Made by a program: the position numbers and the translations under genes. The notes beneath the pieces were generated by a model. That model worked only from the letters and a program-made list of their open reading frames with translations, was not told where the DNA came from and made no database searches. A DNA stretch of 45,505 nucleotides from Chromera velia (taxonomy: Eukaryota): positions 1-45,505 of the forward strand of contig JAHBMJ010000509.1 of the NCBI GenBank assembly GCA_018398765.1, written 5' to 3'. This document shows, piece by piece, positions 1,510 through 18,667 of the stretch. Within the stretch, counting starts at the first letter, position 1. Each line of letters begins with the position of its first letter.

Positions 1510-2390
1510 AGCTTCAATCAACCTCCTCTGCTGTGGTACACCAGTGAAGGAAAGTGAGACAGACGAGAGACAAAGACACTTAAACAACTAACTTCTCGGA
1601 GACAAAGCCGATCCACGCAAGCACACACAGTTGGTGGACGAACTCTCTGGTATCTTCGAAAGCAGCACACAGCTACACACAGCAACCGGGCAGGTAACCG
1701 AAGTATGGAGATGCATATATATGTGGAGAATAGATCGCGTACACGCGGTGAATCCGGGTGAATCTGTTCCATCGGTGTGCCAGATGCCTGCAACAGTGCA
1801 ACATGCATGCAGATTCCCCCGCGCGCAGCTGCATGGCAGGCTGGCGGGCCGTGCATTATATGGCCTGTTTCACCATGTTTCACCATGCATTGAACTGTTG
1901 TTCAGAATGCGTGTGTCCCGGCCCAACCGGCTATAACCGGCTCCATTTGAGGGTCAATGCGCACGCGGAAAGGTGGATGGACGGGATGCACATGCAGAGG
2001 TCTGCGTTGCGTGCATTCGGTGGCGTAGATGGGCATTCCACAAGCTTGTCAGTTGACAAACGGGTCTTTCCTCCTGCCCCTATATATATAGGTGCGAATG
2101 GAGTTTCCTACTTTGCGGTACGTGTGCTTCATGAGCAAATCGTAACCGTCGCACGTGTCAATACTGAAGTGACCCTAGCTTTTGTGACTCCAGCCTTATT
2201 TCGGGTGCTCTTTCTGGGAAAGCGCAGAGCCTCTCGAGCTTTGGCCGCTTTTGGCTTTGGTGACTCTCCGGTCTTTGTCAGTCGTTGATACGGAGTGTCC
2301 AGGATGCACACGCAGGTCAGTATGCTTCTGCTGCCGTGGAGGAGCTGAGGACACCGGAGTACTGTAGTCTCGATCGCTGTACGCATCAGC

Positions 2391-11274
<8,884 letters not shown>

Positions 11275-12506: not shown

Positions 12507-13208
12507 TTTTACTGTTGTAAACTCAGAGCTAGTAGTTGAACATTGACCTGGTAGATGACTTAATTGAGTGGATATACTCTAGTGATATACTAGTCCGTCA
12601 TTGGCCCCGTCAAAGCAGCTGTCGCAATTCTGCCAACCCCCCTGAATTGACAGCTCAGAGATGGTTTCATACCTAGATTCATACACCCATCCCAGCCTCA
12701 GCTCCGTGGATGGCGAGAAGCTTTCATTTTCCTGATCGATTGGCAAGTCCCACCAGCCCCTCACCGCATCCAGTCAATCCGATCGCTCTTCGCAACTCGC
12801 AACTGCAAACCTCAAAATCGAACCAAGCAAAGCGAAAGGACGGAAAATAGGCACGCATAGTCAGACACAACACAAGAGACCAGCAACAAACACACAAACA
12901 TAATCATCAATCGACCAACTGCTTGCAGCCCTCCATATTTCTTTTGCCTCGTTTCACGAAAGGCTTCTCAAAGAGGGTAGTAGGTGAAGTTTTTGCAGAA
13001 GCATGAACATGGCTTGGTTCCAATTTAGTGTAATTCCGACGGGTTAGAGCTTGTGCAGCAAGAGGAAGTCGGATGAGGGGGTGACTGAATTCAGACTGTG
13101 CATGTGCTGCGTGAGACAAAACAAGAGCCAGACCGAATATTGCACCAATTTCAAGCACAGTGACAGATTCACCTGAAAAAGAAACGATTCCCGCACTGGC
13201 ACACATCC

Positions 13209-16200
13209 TTACTCCAGATTCCTCAACCTCACTGCCTTGTACAGGACACCTGCAAGCACAGATGATGTCATCTGGCAAGGTAGCAGAAGGAAGTTCTTGG
13301 ACACACTCACAAACGAGCGGAACGCCCACCCGTACAAGCCAGCTGCCAGTGTACGACGGGCAGCAATAGTGCTGAAGACCGAGAAAGCCACAAGCGATGG
13401 CAGCAAATCCCAAAAAAATGGAGACAACAACGGCCACCCGACACTCCCCAACCACTTTGAAACCTTGTCCTCTGTTCTCTTTGGCAGCTTGGTATCCCTG
13501 ATTTGTTTCTGGACTTCAGGAATTCCTCGCAATCCCGCCATCCATCCACAGCGCAGCTCCTCAAGCACACGTCCACAGGCCAACGCGAACAGCATTGGGT
13601 GCTGATGCGCGAGCTTTGCTACGTCCACTCGAACTGCTGCACCAGCTCTGGTCAGAAGTCTTCCAAAGAGATGCAGCCCCTGCTGAAGAGACGCAAGGAA
13701 ATGTCCGCAAGCGGTTTGCTGCTGTGTGGGAGAAGAGACTTTTGTGCGTACACACACACAGGCAAAGATCCCCAGTCCCAAAAAAACGTATGTGGTGACA
13801 TTGCAGGGGCGAGGCCAAATTTTTTCAGGCAGTAGGCTGCCAACCTCGCATGCCACCTCGACAGCTTTTGCTTTCAGACGGTGCGCGTGACCTTGTGCGC
13901 AGCGCCTGCAGACTCTGGGCGGCAACCCCGAGTCTTTGGCTGGGCAGACCAATGAAACGCACTGCCAGCCTGAAGCCCACGGGCCGGCGTGCCCACCCCT
14001 CTTTCCCTCACAAATGTGGCACTTCCAGTCCACCAGATCGGCGAAGGGCTGCATCGGCTGCCCGCAAGAGCACGCGGGTTGTAGCAGCCTTCGAAAGGTG
14101 GATTGACTCTCCAAAGGGTAGTACAGCACCCGGAGAGGAACGGGGTCGGCAGAGGTTAGCAGAGAGGCAAAAGGGGAACCTAACCCCGGCACATAGCCAG
14201 TGGTACTTTGCCCATCAACCTCAAGCACCCAGAGGCCTGCAAGGCGTCGGGGTTCTCCGACAAGCCAGGGGCCCGGACCAGGGAACAATCGCACTCCCTC
14301 TAATTTGGGTCTGCAGGTCACCGAACGGATAAGCTCCGGTCGTGCTACTGCCCGAGCGCCCACCACTCCAAGCTCCTCTGCTGTTTTCTCTGCCCTTAAT
14401 AAAAAGACGCCCAACAGCCGCCTCGAAACTTCTAGTCTCTTGACTAACTCAACAATTTGGGGATGTGGGGCGGAGTTACCCTGTCCATGAGGGGAAAGCT
14501 GGAAAACTCCTCCTGGGCCCTCCCAGCGAAAGAGCGATACAGCAGAGTCGAGTATGCTGAAATCCGTCCCTGATCCCCGCTCTTTCGCAACCAGCGCTGA
14601 TGTGTAGATGAGCATCGCATCCCCCAGGGTGCTGAGCGGGAAACCGCTGCAAAGCCGCACAAAATCCGGGGGGATCTGTGACAAGAAGTCGCACATCAGA
14701 CCTATGAGCCGCAGCATGGTGACCGGGTCAAACGATTCCATGATCCTGCCGAGGCGTATGGTCCCGAAGAAGCCCCATCTGTCCAATGCAAATTGTTCAG
14801 CAATATTTGAATCTAACTCTAAGGCACGCGTGTTGACAGACGCAACCAAAAGTGAGCTGTCCATCGACAGCGCCTCGCCGAGTTGTTTGCTCAGCTCTCC
14901 CTCAAAAGAACTTCGACCCTCCCGCCCCTCCCCGTACAGGAGTCGGGCAACATCCTCGAAGTCCAAGCTGTCGCGTTGGATGCCCCACTTCAACACTCTC
15001 TTGTGGAGTTGTGCGGGACGTTCATCATCCCGCCGCCGAGCCACAAAAAGCTCTCGAATTTGGTCAATGTCCAGGTTTCGAATGCCTTGAAGAACAGAGT
15101 CAGATGGTGGCGCCGCAGAGGCCACCGCCGATGAGCCTGCGCACCAGGAGCGGCAAACGCATGCTATCTCGAATTTCACACTTCGCTCAAGCGGGCAAGG
15201 AGAGACTGTGACAGCGGACACTTCCATTAGACTGAGAAATTTCTGGAGCACTCACAAGAACATGATTCACGGTCAGGAAGGAAAGGGCCGCAGCGAAATC
15301 CGATTCGAAAGCACTGACCATCCGAGGAGTCAGACGATGAGTCATTGGGTGTTGAACTTGAGTTAGAGTCGAGGTCAATGCTGGAGGTCTTCGCACTCAA
15401 GCCTGCAAATCAGGACAGGGGAACAGACCAACAAGCTGAGCAGAGAACGAAGAGGGGCTCTGCAAAAAGACGTTTTGAAGCGAAACACCTGAGTTCAATG
15501 GGAATGCCTGAAGCATGACTGTGTCTCTGTCCAAGTCCGTCTGAATGTAAGTCTGACTCGATGTTTCTCTGGGCCTGTCCCGCCCTCTCTATCTCTCTCT
15601 CTCCCCCTCCCTCCCTCGCTCTCCCCCTCCCCCCCCCTCACGTCCCAAGGCACCTACCTTCGGAGACAGTGGACGCAGAGTCACTTTGCTCCTCGGATTC
15701 CAGCTCCATCCCCCTTTCCGCGCCTCCGTCAGAATTGACTGCGTCAGCGTCACCAGAGTGTGACATCAGGATGCCCACGTCTTGCTGTGAGGTCACCTCA
15801 AAGAACTTGCCCTCCTTGACCAGTCGTATACCCCCGTCCTGCTCAGAAACCAGGATGGCAACGAGCCCTGGATAGGAAGCAGTGGTTTGCCTCATGGAAA
15901 GGTGCCGCAGGCCATGGCTCCCCGGATCTTGCCCAGGAATGCAGGGAAGGGGGACTTTCGCGTGAAGACGACCGTTCACGATGAACAGAACTCCATCATG
16001 AAGAGGACTCTCCTTGTCGAACAGCCTCACTAGCGCATCCACCGAAACCTCAATACTTAGGGGCCGTCCAGCTTCCAGCCACGGCTTCACCAGGTCAGCA
16101 TCAGATCGCACAAGGACGATACTACATCCTGTCTTCGTGGTTGACATCTCAGAGGCAGCAGCAAAGATGGTTTTGAGGTGCACCATGAACCCATCAGCCG

Positions 16201-16558
16201 AGCCGCTCGAGGACCTCCCTTCTACTATTTCCGCCATTCGAATACTCAAACGAGCACCGGCATCCACCATCTCGCGGTGAGCCAACTCTTCCGTAGAGTA
16301 GCTCTCACGGGCTGGGAAACTGTGAAGCTCAGTAGACACTGCTCGACGAAAAATGTGCCCCAAAGCATGCCCACTGCTGTTAGTAATAGAGATCGATGTT
16401 TTCAACGCTGCTTGCAAATCGCTGTTCGGGCAAAACATTGACAAGATACCTGGCACTCCTTCTTGGGAACCAGGATTGCGAACACTCCACGAAACTTGCG
16501 TCCAAAACTTCCAGGAACCTTCGACTTCGAGCACTCGGTCCGGCTTCTGCGAATCCAT
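13209..16558 (-). CDS. Diadenylate cyclase (DAC/DisA_N, CdaA-like) domain protein, ~929 aa, with Cys-rich zinc-finger-like region and hydrophobic C-terminus
   Basis: Exons 16558-15658, 15402-15319, 15136-13845, 13721-13209 join in phase with GT-AG introns. The DAC domain (~16177-15764) reads IFAAASEMSTTKTGCSIVLVR...LEAGRPLSIEVSVDALVRLFDKESPLHDGVLFIVNGR...LP...HGLRHLSM...ILVSEQDGGIRLVKEG. This matches the CdaA pattern GALIV...SPLHDGAVII...GTRHRAA...VVSEETGxIS. The extreme C-terminus is uncertain (possible small intron 13310-13250). Confidence 0.85.
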
Positions 16559-17176
16559 TCTTCGAGAAAGTGGCTTCTCATGCAGTCAGCAGGTGGAAGC
16601 GAGGATATGCACAGACTTCCACGAATACTGAGCGAAAGGGTCTCCGATTCAAGACTCCGAGCATCTCCGAGAGCATGTACAATCAGTACAAACCTGTGGA
16701 GGCGTACGTACTGCTTATCAGATGAACATCCTTCGAACAGTCCAGTTTTCTCCCGAGTGACCGAGTCCCGACTGGCTGGCCGCGGTTTTGATTTCAGTGC
16801 ATGGCGTCAACCTGACAAAACGCAATGCATACGGGGCGGCGCGCAATGCGCGCGCGTTGTTTGGATTGGACCGTCGATTATCTGATGATGCAGTGGCAGA
16901 TGCACTGCCTTCTGGGCTCAGTTGGCTGAGTGGGCTCTGGATTTCTCAACTTGAACGGTGGATGACCTGGTGAGCAACACGTGAAAGAAGAGTGTCTCGT
17001 GACTGCCCTTTGAGTAGCGCACAGCTGCTCCGCTACGATCAAGGGAACACAATCTGTCTCGCAGTGGAATCTTTGACTGACCTTGATTTGTGATCCAAGT
17101 ATATCCAAGTAAATTTTCTGTAGCTCGGCCTTCACAGTTCCACTCAGACTTGGCCGGTACCTTTTTGCCTTGAACC

Positions 17177-18667
17177 ATGACTCTGCCGTCAGCTGCTTCT
17201 CCCTCAGCTCGCTCTTCTTCCAAATCTCTCGGGACCACAGGACCAACAGCGGACCCTGTCAGGACAACACCCCCCTGCAAAGAGGTTGTTGAGTCTCCAT
17301 CAGGGGAAGGGTCCCTGGCACTCCCCGAGGATTCTCCTTCGTCCCCCTCCAGATTTCAGTTGACGCCCATGATTCTGCAGAATGTGCGAAGATTCAGACC
17401 CGTCTCTGCGGAGTTTTTGAAAAGGATGGTGAAGTGCCGGTGGTCAGGTGAAGCGGAAGACGAAAAGCATGAGAGAAGTGTCAACCTGCTGCTGCTTCTC
17501 CGCGTCGGTGCCGATGTGAACGGCTCATTAGACATTCCTTCCTCCGACGTGTCTTCCTGGATGAGGCCTGCGTGCCTCCTCGGGGGCCCTAAAGAGTCCA
17601 TTTTGCACTTCGCAGCTAGAAGAGGGGACACCGTAGCCGTCTCCACTCTGCTGTCCCTCGGTGTTGCAGTGAACAGAAGCACACCGGGGGGGTTCACGGC
17701 TCTGTTTGCGGGAGCTGCAGAGGGACATGCGGAGGCAGTGAAGATTCTTTTGCGCGCGGGGGCAGACGCGCGCATCCAGAGCAACTGGGGGTGGAGTGCT
17801 CTGCTTGTTGCGTCGTCTTCCGGGCAGACGGCTGTTGTGAGGGAGATAGTGAGCGTCGAGAAGGGGAAGGGGAACATTGCCGAACTGCTTGAAGCTCAGG
17901 GGGCCGGTTTCGGCTTTGAGGGCACCACTGCTCTCATGGTGGCTTCTGGGAGGGGTCATCTTGATGTGGTCAGGGTCCTGATTGAGGCAGGGGCCCTTGT
18001 AGACGCGGTAGACAGACGGGGGTGGACTCCACTGCATACTGCGTCGTTCAAGGGAAATGTGGATGTGGTCCTAGAGTTACTGCAGTGTGGAGCGTCTGTC
18101 AATCAGGGTTGCACAGGGAGCATTGGGGAGGTGAATGGGACATCTGTGGGTTGGGTGTCCGGGCGCACGCCTCTGATGGCCGCGTCCTTCAAAGGCTATA
18201 CGGAGATTGTGGTTGCCCTCATAAAGGCAGACGCGGACGTGGAAGCAAAAGACCATTGGGGGGAGACTGCACTCATCAGAGGGGCACGGCAGGGCAGTAC
18301 CGGTGCTGTGCGGGCACTCTTGAGCGCAGGGGCAGATCCGAATGTGCGGACTAGAAGTCTGTATGGGGGCTGCATTGCTCTCGTTCTGGCTGCCCGTGGG
18401 GGACATGTGGAGGTTGTGAGGGCTCTTCTTGAGTCCAACGCTGGAGTGAACAACCAGGAGAAAGATCGCAGGATGGCGTTGGAGGCAGCCTCCGAGAGGG
18501 GGCACGTGGAGGTTGTGAAGACGATGCTCGAGGCAGGGGTGACAGATGATCCCCTCGGGCAGCCGGCTTTGGAGGCAGCATCACGAGAGGGGCACACTGC
18601 GGTTGTGCAGGTTTTGGAAAAAGGGAATTTCCCGCTTGGACACGTACCACGCAAGCTAAGCAAATGA
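17177..18667 (+). CDS. Ankyrin-repeat protein, 496 aa, intronless
   Basis: About ten ankyrin repeats, e.g. GFTALFAGAAEGHAEAVKILLRAGAD, GTTALMVASGRGHLDVVRVLIEAGA, GWTPLHTASFKGNVDVVLELLQCGA. Confidence 0.95.
   Translation: MTLPSAASPSARSSSKSLGTTGPTADPVRTTPPCKEVVESPSGEGSLALPEDSPSSPSRFQLTPMILQNVRRFRPVSAEFLKRMVKCRWSGEAEDEKHERSVNLLLLLRVGADVNGSLDIPSSDVSSWMRPACLLGGPKESILHFAARRGDTVAVSTLLSLGVAVNRSTPGGFTALFAGAAEGHAEAVKILLRAGADARIQSNWGWSALLVASSSGQTAVVREIVSVEKGKGNIAELLEAQGAGFGFEGTTALMVASGRGHLDVVRVLIEAGALVDAVDRRGWTPLHTASFKGNVDVVLELLQCGASVNQGCTGSIGEVNGTSVGWVSGRTPLMAASFKGYTEIVVALIKADADVEAKDHWGETALIRGARQGSTGAVRALLSAGADPNVRTRSLYGGCIALVLAARGGHVEVVRALLESNAGVNNQEKDRRMALEAASERGHVEVVKTMLEAGVTDDPLGQPALEAASREGHTAVVQVLEKGNFPLGHVPRKLSK

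Follow-up and report, generated by a model that had tools for sequence, protein, structure and literature searches.

c-di-AMP and the diadenylate cyclase (DAC) enzymes are regarded as bacterial and archaeal, and we know of eukaryotes that sense c-di-AMP but of none that makes it. The gene Cvel_17946 of the chromerid alga Chromera velia, located on the minus strand of the 45,505-nt stretch of DNA analysed here (the window), encodes a DAC domain and raises the question of whether a eukaryote could use such an enzyme to make a cyclic dinucleotide of its own. The presence of the domain is already known from automatic annotation in UniProt (A0A0G4FND4, 'DAC domain-containing protein'), which our homologue search returned as the self match. 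In the accessible parts of three papers (PMC10249747, PMC10167629 and PMC11376277), DAC is discussed for bacteria and archaea only. Our literature search, which lay mostly outside subscription papers, where a printed mention may exist, returned at listing level no paper on a eukaryotic DAC and none for Chromera.

Cvel_17946 is a spliced nuclear gene

Joining exons 16558-15658, 15402-15319 and 15136-13209 on the minus strand yielded exactly the 970-aa transcript-derived protein that forms a two-member protein cluster with an 874-aa model. This public model begins at a later methionine, Met97 of the 970-aa protein. The 2913-nt frame is open across two introns, and the layout of the locus is as follows.

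16559..16697, minus strand: 5′ UTR, covered by transcript contigs, with upstream ATGs at 16676, 16664 and 16581
15658..16558, minus strand: coding exon 1 (901 nt, from ATG 16558), encoding an N-terminal extension followed by the DAC domain and the first part of a Ser/Asp-rich linker
15806..16159, minus strand: DAC domain (PF02457), aa 134-251 of the 970-aa protein
15403..15657, minus strand: intron 1 (GT-AG, 255 nt)
15319..15402, minus strand: coding exon 2 (84 nt), continuing the Ser/Asp-rich linker
15137..15318, minus strand: intron 2 (GT-AG, 182 nt), retained in one contig of run X1
13209..15136, minus strand: coding exon 3, which runs through the stop codon and supplies about 640 aa for which neither relatives nor families were detected
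12803..13172, minus strand: intron 3 (GT-AG, 370 nt), lying within the 3′ UTR, with skipped and retained forms both assembled

Of the upstream ATGs, the one at 16581 lies in another frame and overlaps the start of the main frame. The N-terminal extension ahead of the DAC domain comprises about 125 aa and matches no known family.

Transcript evidence came from contigs of four runs out of eight listed, the runs being labelled RNA by guess. Both coding junctions were skipped in three of the four runs (two studies), the fourth having no cover there, and the 3′-UTR junction was skipped in all four (three studies), so that transcript contigs bridge the 255-nt, 182-nt and 370-nt gaps as splicing predicts. 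A single 3099-nt contig spans all coding exons, from the DAC exon through the last. Although the RNA label was guessed, the exact GT-AG skipping and this bridging contig demonstrate a spliced transcript. A preliminary description of the locus had counted three GT-AG introns within the gene. All three are GT-AG introns, but only two interrupt the coding sequence; the third begins 36 nt past the stop codon, which puts it within the 3′ UTR and beyond the interval 13209-16558 assigned to the gene, and the earlier count of coding introns was therefore one too high.

The same description had placed the gene in a eukaryotic neighbourhood, and the neighbouring genes, which encode arrestin-domain, ankyrin, SF1 helix-hairpin and zinc-knuckle proteins, agree with this, as does an upstream neighbour with 11 GT-AG joints. 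Where architecture or name was checked, all but one of the protein's 149 best non-self matches resemble bacterial CdaA, which would favour bacterial contamination or a chimeric assembly; this reading nevertheless has next to no chance of being correct, because spliced, intron-skipping contigs connect the DAC exon with the exons downstream of it, the transcript-derived 970-aa protein is identical to the spliced frame, identity to bacterial DACs is 30-40% at best, and the GC3 of the DAC (0.60) agrees with that of the C-terminal exon (0.59) and of the ankyrin neighbour (0.62). Contamination, against which the preliminary description had also argued, is excluded, and Cvel_17946 is a genuine spliced nuclear gene.

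Fold and active site of the DAC domain

The proposal that the first exon encodes a complete DAC fold was borne out at the levels of sequence and predicted structure. The Pfam DAC match (E 3.5e-16, 59.3 bits, cut-off 27) covers model positions 3-118 of 119, and the 17 PDB sequence matches of the domain consist entirely of DAC proteins and the CdaS-type entry 2fb5. AlphaFold2 (AF2) modelled the domain with a pLDDT of 88 from a 124-row alignment, a confidence that is partly inherited from the CdaA alignment used for the model. The best Foldseek match of the model was CdaA 6hvl (E 1e-11, TM 0.78); comparison with CdaA/CdaM gave Z 20.6 and an rmsd of 2.2 Å over 145 residues, versus Z 11-12 for DisA. 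The motif landmarks lie where they had been placed, in one minus-strand frame from ATG 16558: KTGCSIV (16135-16115), SPLHDGV (16009-15989), GLRHL (15913-15899) and VSEQDG (15850-15833).

The domain scored 43 bits against the CdaA equivalog TIGR00159, below its cut-off of 188.8, and 30.4 and 25.7 bits against the NCBIfam CdaS and CdaM models (cut-off 225). Its Pfam DAC score of 59 bits compares with 104-162 for ordinary single-domain homologues. The N-terminal transmembrane domain of CdaA (PF19293) gave no Pfam match, and aa 1-125 contain no hydrophobic segment. Having lost the membrane anchor and lying close to the N-terminus of a much longer chain, the Chromera DAC is, in our view, CdaA-like in fold, not a CdaA member. 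With CdaA/DacA (TIGR00159; PF02457 plus PF19293), above all the Bacteroidota type, it shares the fold and the HDG, GxRH and SE motifs, but it differs in lacking the N-terminal membrane domain, in the position of the DAC within a 970-aa spliced protein and in an altered adenine pocket.

We mapped the active site onto the numbering of Listeria CdaA, for which the available text of PMC7288161 gives ten ATP/metal contact residues.

15992..16000, minus strand: His187-Asp188-Gly189 (Listeria His170-Asp171-Gly172), all three unchanged; the next residue, Val190, replaces Ala173, the Ala of homologues
15899..15913, minus strand: Gly216-Leu-Arg218-His219-Leu220 (Listeria G201-T-R-H-R205), with G, R and H intact
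15839..15847, minus strand: Ser238-Glu239-Gln240 (Listeria S222-E223-E224), with Gln at the position of the metal-binding Glu224

Seven of the ten contacts are identical in Chromera. The changed contacts are Leu131 to Ser146 (an adenine contact), Thr202 to Leu217 and Glu224 to Gln240 (metal). At the motif level, the domain carries DGV for DGA, RHL for RHR, GCSI for GALI and SEQ for SEE. In the adenine pocket, the Leu131 to Ser146 change is accompanied by Tyr187 to Pro203 and by deletion of one residue before Ala200.

For comparison, we assembled 231 homologues from phmmer matches, 80 GTDB loci and a few references, picked by similarity to the Chromera protein; most phmmer rows were taken as bacterial from their architecture, and P0012, P0013 and P0028, which are broken or carry two domains, were left out. 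Within this set, 6 rows keep seven of the contacts, 45 keep eight, 117 keep nine and 63 keep all ten. Leu217 occurs in 108 homologues, Gln240 in 27, both together in 14, and Leu220 (RHL) in 10; the combination of RHL with SEQ occurs in none of the 231. By comparison, Ser146, Cys145, Val190, Pro203 and Gln224 were each found in 0 of 230-231 homologues. The gene carrying Leu217 and Gln240 is the sole DAC match in all four Bacteroidota genomes tested, as is the RHL gene in the one genome tested (all metagenome-assembled, completeness not given).

According to the accessible part of PMC13640721, an Asp, two Gly and an Arg are the only residues found in every curated DAC, and the minimal DAC PanS is killed by mutating the Asp or the first Arg. 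Chromera keeps this entire Asp-Gly and Gly-x-Arg floor (D188, G189, G216 and R218), including both residues essential in PanS. As given in the available portions of the respective sources, active PanS enzymes carry DGF/GGR (10.64898/2026.08.10.743927), whole-motif replacements of DGA or RHR by AAA are dead (PMC4568413), a mutant of the Tyr lid loses most activity in CdaA and DacM (10.1101/2022.03.11.483894), and the lid Tyr is absent from DisA and CdaS (PMC6368335). The DGA to DGV and RHR to RHL changes had been flagged as leaving room for a pseudoenzyme or nucleotide sensor. Both are present, but the emphasis was misplaced: they probably matter little, since the Ala of DGA and the last Arg of RHR lie outside the ten contacts, RHL occurs naturally and PanS is active with DGF/GGR. 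The informative changes are Leu131 to Ser, Tyr187 to Pro and Glu224 to Gln. Of the active site, the half that performs the chemistry is preserved and the half that recognises the base is remodelled.

PanS, from the Panoptoo/PanDA anti-phage systems, keeps the same catalytic floor with a different base-contacting part and provides a precedent for a product other than c-di-AMP. It is a stand-alone bacterial protein of ~150 aa with HDGF/GGR and an adjacent 2TM-beta membrane effector, whereas the Chromera protein has 970 aa and HDGV/GLRH, and its gene neighbours are ankyrin and orphan genes.

When the alignment columns were ranked by conservation among homologues, retention proved steeply graded. 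Chromera retains the consensus in 16/17 columns conserved at ≥95%, 11/29 at 70-95%, 13/36 at 40-70% and 13/72 below 40% (16/17 versus 11/29, Fisher p 2e-4). It misses 20 of the 44 columns conserved at ≥70%, for which the median is 5, and its branch is very long (2.7-4.6 changes per site). The retention of near-invariant columns alongside the loss of moderately conserved ones points to selection on the active site, and neutral decay is unlikely given that the ≥95% columns were spared despite the very long branch. On this pattern, the catalytic core looks to be under selection.

Origin and eukaryote-type relatives

The Chromera DAC likely came from a bacterium, with Bacteroidota as the best guess for the donor. 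Of the best 80 GTDB loci, 79 belong to Bacteroidota (4/64 parts scanned), a signal that is partly circular because the search pattern was built from top matches. At the motif level, too, the domain resembles Bacteroidota, sharing the KTG, FxKxSPLHD, GLRH and SEQ variants typical of that group. Tree placement shifted with sampling, to Bacteroidota or to other eukaryote-type DACs: the domain fell inside Bacteroidota in one quick 30-row tree (support 89), a placement absent from the other trees. Atlas searches with the Chromera domain and with P0175, a eukaryote-type DAC described below, returned bacterial clusters only, at 0.90 or lower.

A plastid derivation had also been suggested, and our data lend it no support. 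The domain grouped with cyanobacterial CdaA in none of five free trees, which held only three cyanobacterial-type rows (p-AU 0.58, not rejected), and the protein has no hydrophobic N-terminal targeting segment. It is probably cytosolic or membrane-tethered, not plastid-targeted.

Four eukaryote-type DACs form a separate clade (P0075, P0175, P0176 and L083/P0191; starred in the trees). P0075 is a phmmer match of the Chromera protein from the source 'merc', presumably a catalogue of transcripts from marine eukaryotes. When P0075 and the Chromera domain were combined into a profile, a search that covered proteins of 102-524 aa only found P0175 (EukProt) and P0176 (merc). None of seven candidate viral contigs with P0075 was confirmed. 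L083 was found by a metagenome scan as a 681-aa frame with a predicted leader, a Cys-rich ectodomain, a membrane segment and a C-terminal DAC, about 200 residues separating the last two.

The clade and Chromera have in common eukaryotic sources or architecture and the residues His215, Asp241 and Arg245, and both have lost the final Arg from RHR and the Leu from GALI. They share 6 of 45 rare characters, a number reached by only 2 of the 231 homologues. L083, unlike Chromera, keeps DGA, Thr, Glu and the aromatic lid, and it retains eight of the ten contact residues. Chromera has no N-terminal hydrophobic segment and aligns with P0191 only in the DAC. Chromera joined the clade in two quick trees (SH-aLRT 93 and 88, with long-branch warnings) and fell apart from it in the 30-row tree; a common origin was not rejected (p-AU 0.53), and the Chromera domain ranked 108 of 236 on a profile of the clade.

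Function of the DAC and its C-terminal region

The DAC is linked through the Ser/Asp-rich linker to an orphan 640-aa region. A phmmer search of 1.84 billion representatives with the Cvel_17946 protein gave 637 matches at E ≤0.001. In the best 150 of these, non-self matches lie only around the DAC, so none covers the C-terminal region at ≥42 bits, and no close relative, orthologue or paralogue of the protein was found among the matches listed. The C-terminal region had no Pfam match up to E 10 (six slices), no PDB sequence match below E 0.016 and no Atlas feature match, with rows only at TM < 0.3; its single-sequence AF2 model has a pLDDT of 37. Two features stand out.

13881..14072, minus strand: Cys/His cluster, aa 684-747 (CxC, CxxC, Cx4C, CxxC, HxH)
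13752..13808, minus strand: hydrophobic segment from aa 772 (Kyte-Doolittle 1.9), with a second, weaker segment from aa 898

The Cys/His cluster has no significant family match, and its spacing suggests a putative zinc-binding domain. The segment from aa 772 might conceivably serve as a membrane anchor. At first sight, aa 340-400 resembled degenerate ankyrin repeats, but nothing supported this.

A second strain differs in Cvel_17946 by 11 coding SNPs, 10 nonsynonymous and 1 synonymous, with no stop or frameshift. None of the 11 lies inside the DAC domain (p 0.19, weak). The nonsynonymous share of 10/11 exceeds the 9/17 of the neighbouring genes (p 0.049; neutral expectation about 75%), indicating weak constraint on the gene taken as a whole. 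On these small numbers, the SNPs point to weak constraint, or diversifying selection, outside the DAC domain.

With its core catalytic residues intact and its base-binding pocket altered, the Chromera DAC is predicted to make, or at least bind, a cyclic dinucleotide, and this we consider likely. Our leading reading, to which we give a little less than an even chance, is that a CdaA-type DAC, likely derived from a bacterium, may still cyclise a pair of nucleotide triphosphates to give c-di-AMP or a variant cyclic dinucleotide. We counted in its favour the 16/17 near-invariant columns, the 7/10 contacts, the natural Leu/Gln pair, the natural RHL, the Asp and first Arg that PanS needs, the activity of PanS with DGF/GGR, the fold match and the SNP-free domain, and against it the pocket changes seen in no homologue, the activity lost by the Tyr-lid mutant in CdaA and DacM, the RHL-SEQ combination absent from homologues, the 20/44 missed columns, the low Pfam score, the orphan status and the weak constraint on the whole gene. 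By analogy with CdaA and DisA, two DAC domains would meet head to head, and Asp188, Arg218, His219 and Ser238, together with a divalent metal, would hold the ribose and phosphates. The changes in the adenine pocket (Ser146, Pro203 and the deletion before Ala200) could weaken ATP binding or shift base choice, as remodelling of the lid does in PanS. The C-terminal region, with its probable zinc finger and possible membrane segment, may set the oligomer state or location.

Alternatively, the protein could be a pseudoenzyme or sensor that takes up ATP/ADP or preformed c-di-AMP, such as that released by nearby bacteria, as its ligand and signals to the C-terminal region without cyclisation. The clustering in the adenine pocket of changes seen in no homologue, together with Gln as metal ligand, fits this reading, which is possible but somewhat doubtful: pseudoenzymes usually lose first such residues as the catalytic Asp and its adjacent His, both intact here, and the Leu/Gln pair occurs naturally in genomes with a single DAC match. 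Binding alone could nevertheless preserve the Asp, Gly, Arg and His, since the same residues also contact the product, according to the available part of 10.64898/2026.08.10.743927.

An unlikely alternative holds that a transferred DAC, long functional and selected, lost its role and now drifts as a decaying relic in an expressed orphan gene. The strain SNPs do look neutral, no orthologue or paralogue appeared among the phmmer matches listed, and the out-of-frame upstream ATG overlaps the start. Set against this, the 2913-nt frame has stayed open across two introns and free of stops and frameshifts between strains, the near-invariant columns are intact, and all 10 nonsynonymous SNPs fall outside the DAC domain.

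In the accessible parts of PMC13640721 and PMC7288161, Dictyostelium c-di-GMP signalling and eukaryotic cGAS/CD-NTases provide precedents for the synthesis of cyclic dinucleotides by eukaryotes. Their folds are unrelated to that of the Chromera DAC, and our searches turned up no precedent with a DAC. If the leading reading of an active cyclase applies, Chromera and, separately, the receptor-type DAC protist clade might each make their own cyclic dinucleotide, a third eukaryotic route that we put forward with considerable reserve; the Chromera product may differ from c-di-AMP and be coupled to a fast-evolving region that bears the zinc finger. The two other routes are cGAS-like enzymes and the c-di-GMP synthase of Dictyostelium, which we take to be a GGDEF protein. 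Even without synthesis, the Chromera gene would offer a DAC-derived nucleotide sensor. Because Chromera, a relative of apicomplexans, can be cultured, its spliced nuclear DAC gene, together with a second, eukaryote-type clade, makes the question of whether eukaryotes make c-di-AMP directly testable.

A eukaryote-type diadenylate cyclase clade

One locus from the metagenome scan, L083, encodes a cyclase domain joined to receptor-like modules:

L083:45-2090, + strand: receptor-like protein in which a Cys-rich ectodomain is followed by a membrane segment and a C-terminal diadenylate cyclase (DAC) domain

Together with P0075, P0175 and P0176, L083 forms a tight clade of eukaryote-type DACs, which carry the motifs HDGA, GTRHASA and SEEDG. 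The L083 domain retains 8 of the 10 residues that contact ATP or metal in Listeria CdaA. If any eukaryote makes c-di-AMP with such a domain, L083 may be a stronger candidate than the Chromera gene.

Bacterial DAC domains

One bacterial DAC of the RHL type is plasmid-borne:

L086:1450-1959: stand-alone RHL-type DAC of 169 aa, on a mobilizable Picosynechococcus (cyanobacterial) plasmid, NZ_CP016482.1

An ATP-binding protein adjoins this gene on the plasmid, and similar copies occur on plasmids of three strains. L059, whose contig bears the title Acutalibacteraceae (Bacillota), has a DAC that hardly differs from one of Paludibacteraceae (tree support 100), reflecting either transfer or mis-binning.

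Variants and neighbours of the Chromera gene

The 3'-UTR intron of the DAC gene (12803-13172, − strand) occurs in skipped and retained forms in three runs, and one contig retains intron 2 (15137-15318, − strand). A second strain carries an 11-nt insertion at 16640, within the 5' UTR. Other genes in the window include:

289-1587, − strand: gene with arrestin N- and C-domain matches
2061-11274, + strand: long multi-exon gene with 11 GT-AG joints
17174-18667, + strand: ankyrin-repeat gene (Pfam Ank_2, E 3e-71)
27181-30892, − strand: splicing factor 1/branchpoint-binding protein-like gene (SF1-HH, E 6e-19; zinc knuckle)

The ankyrin-repeat and DAC genes form a head-to-head pair, with ~600 nt between the DAC start and the start of the ankyrin frame, and may be regulated together. 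The long gene encodes repeated Thr/Glu-rich and beta-rich modules and had no Pfam match in the slices searched; its product resembles proteins that are secreted or displayed at the cell surface. Simple repeats fill the introns of the SF1-like gene.
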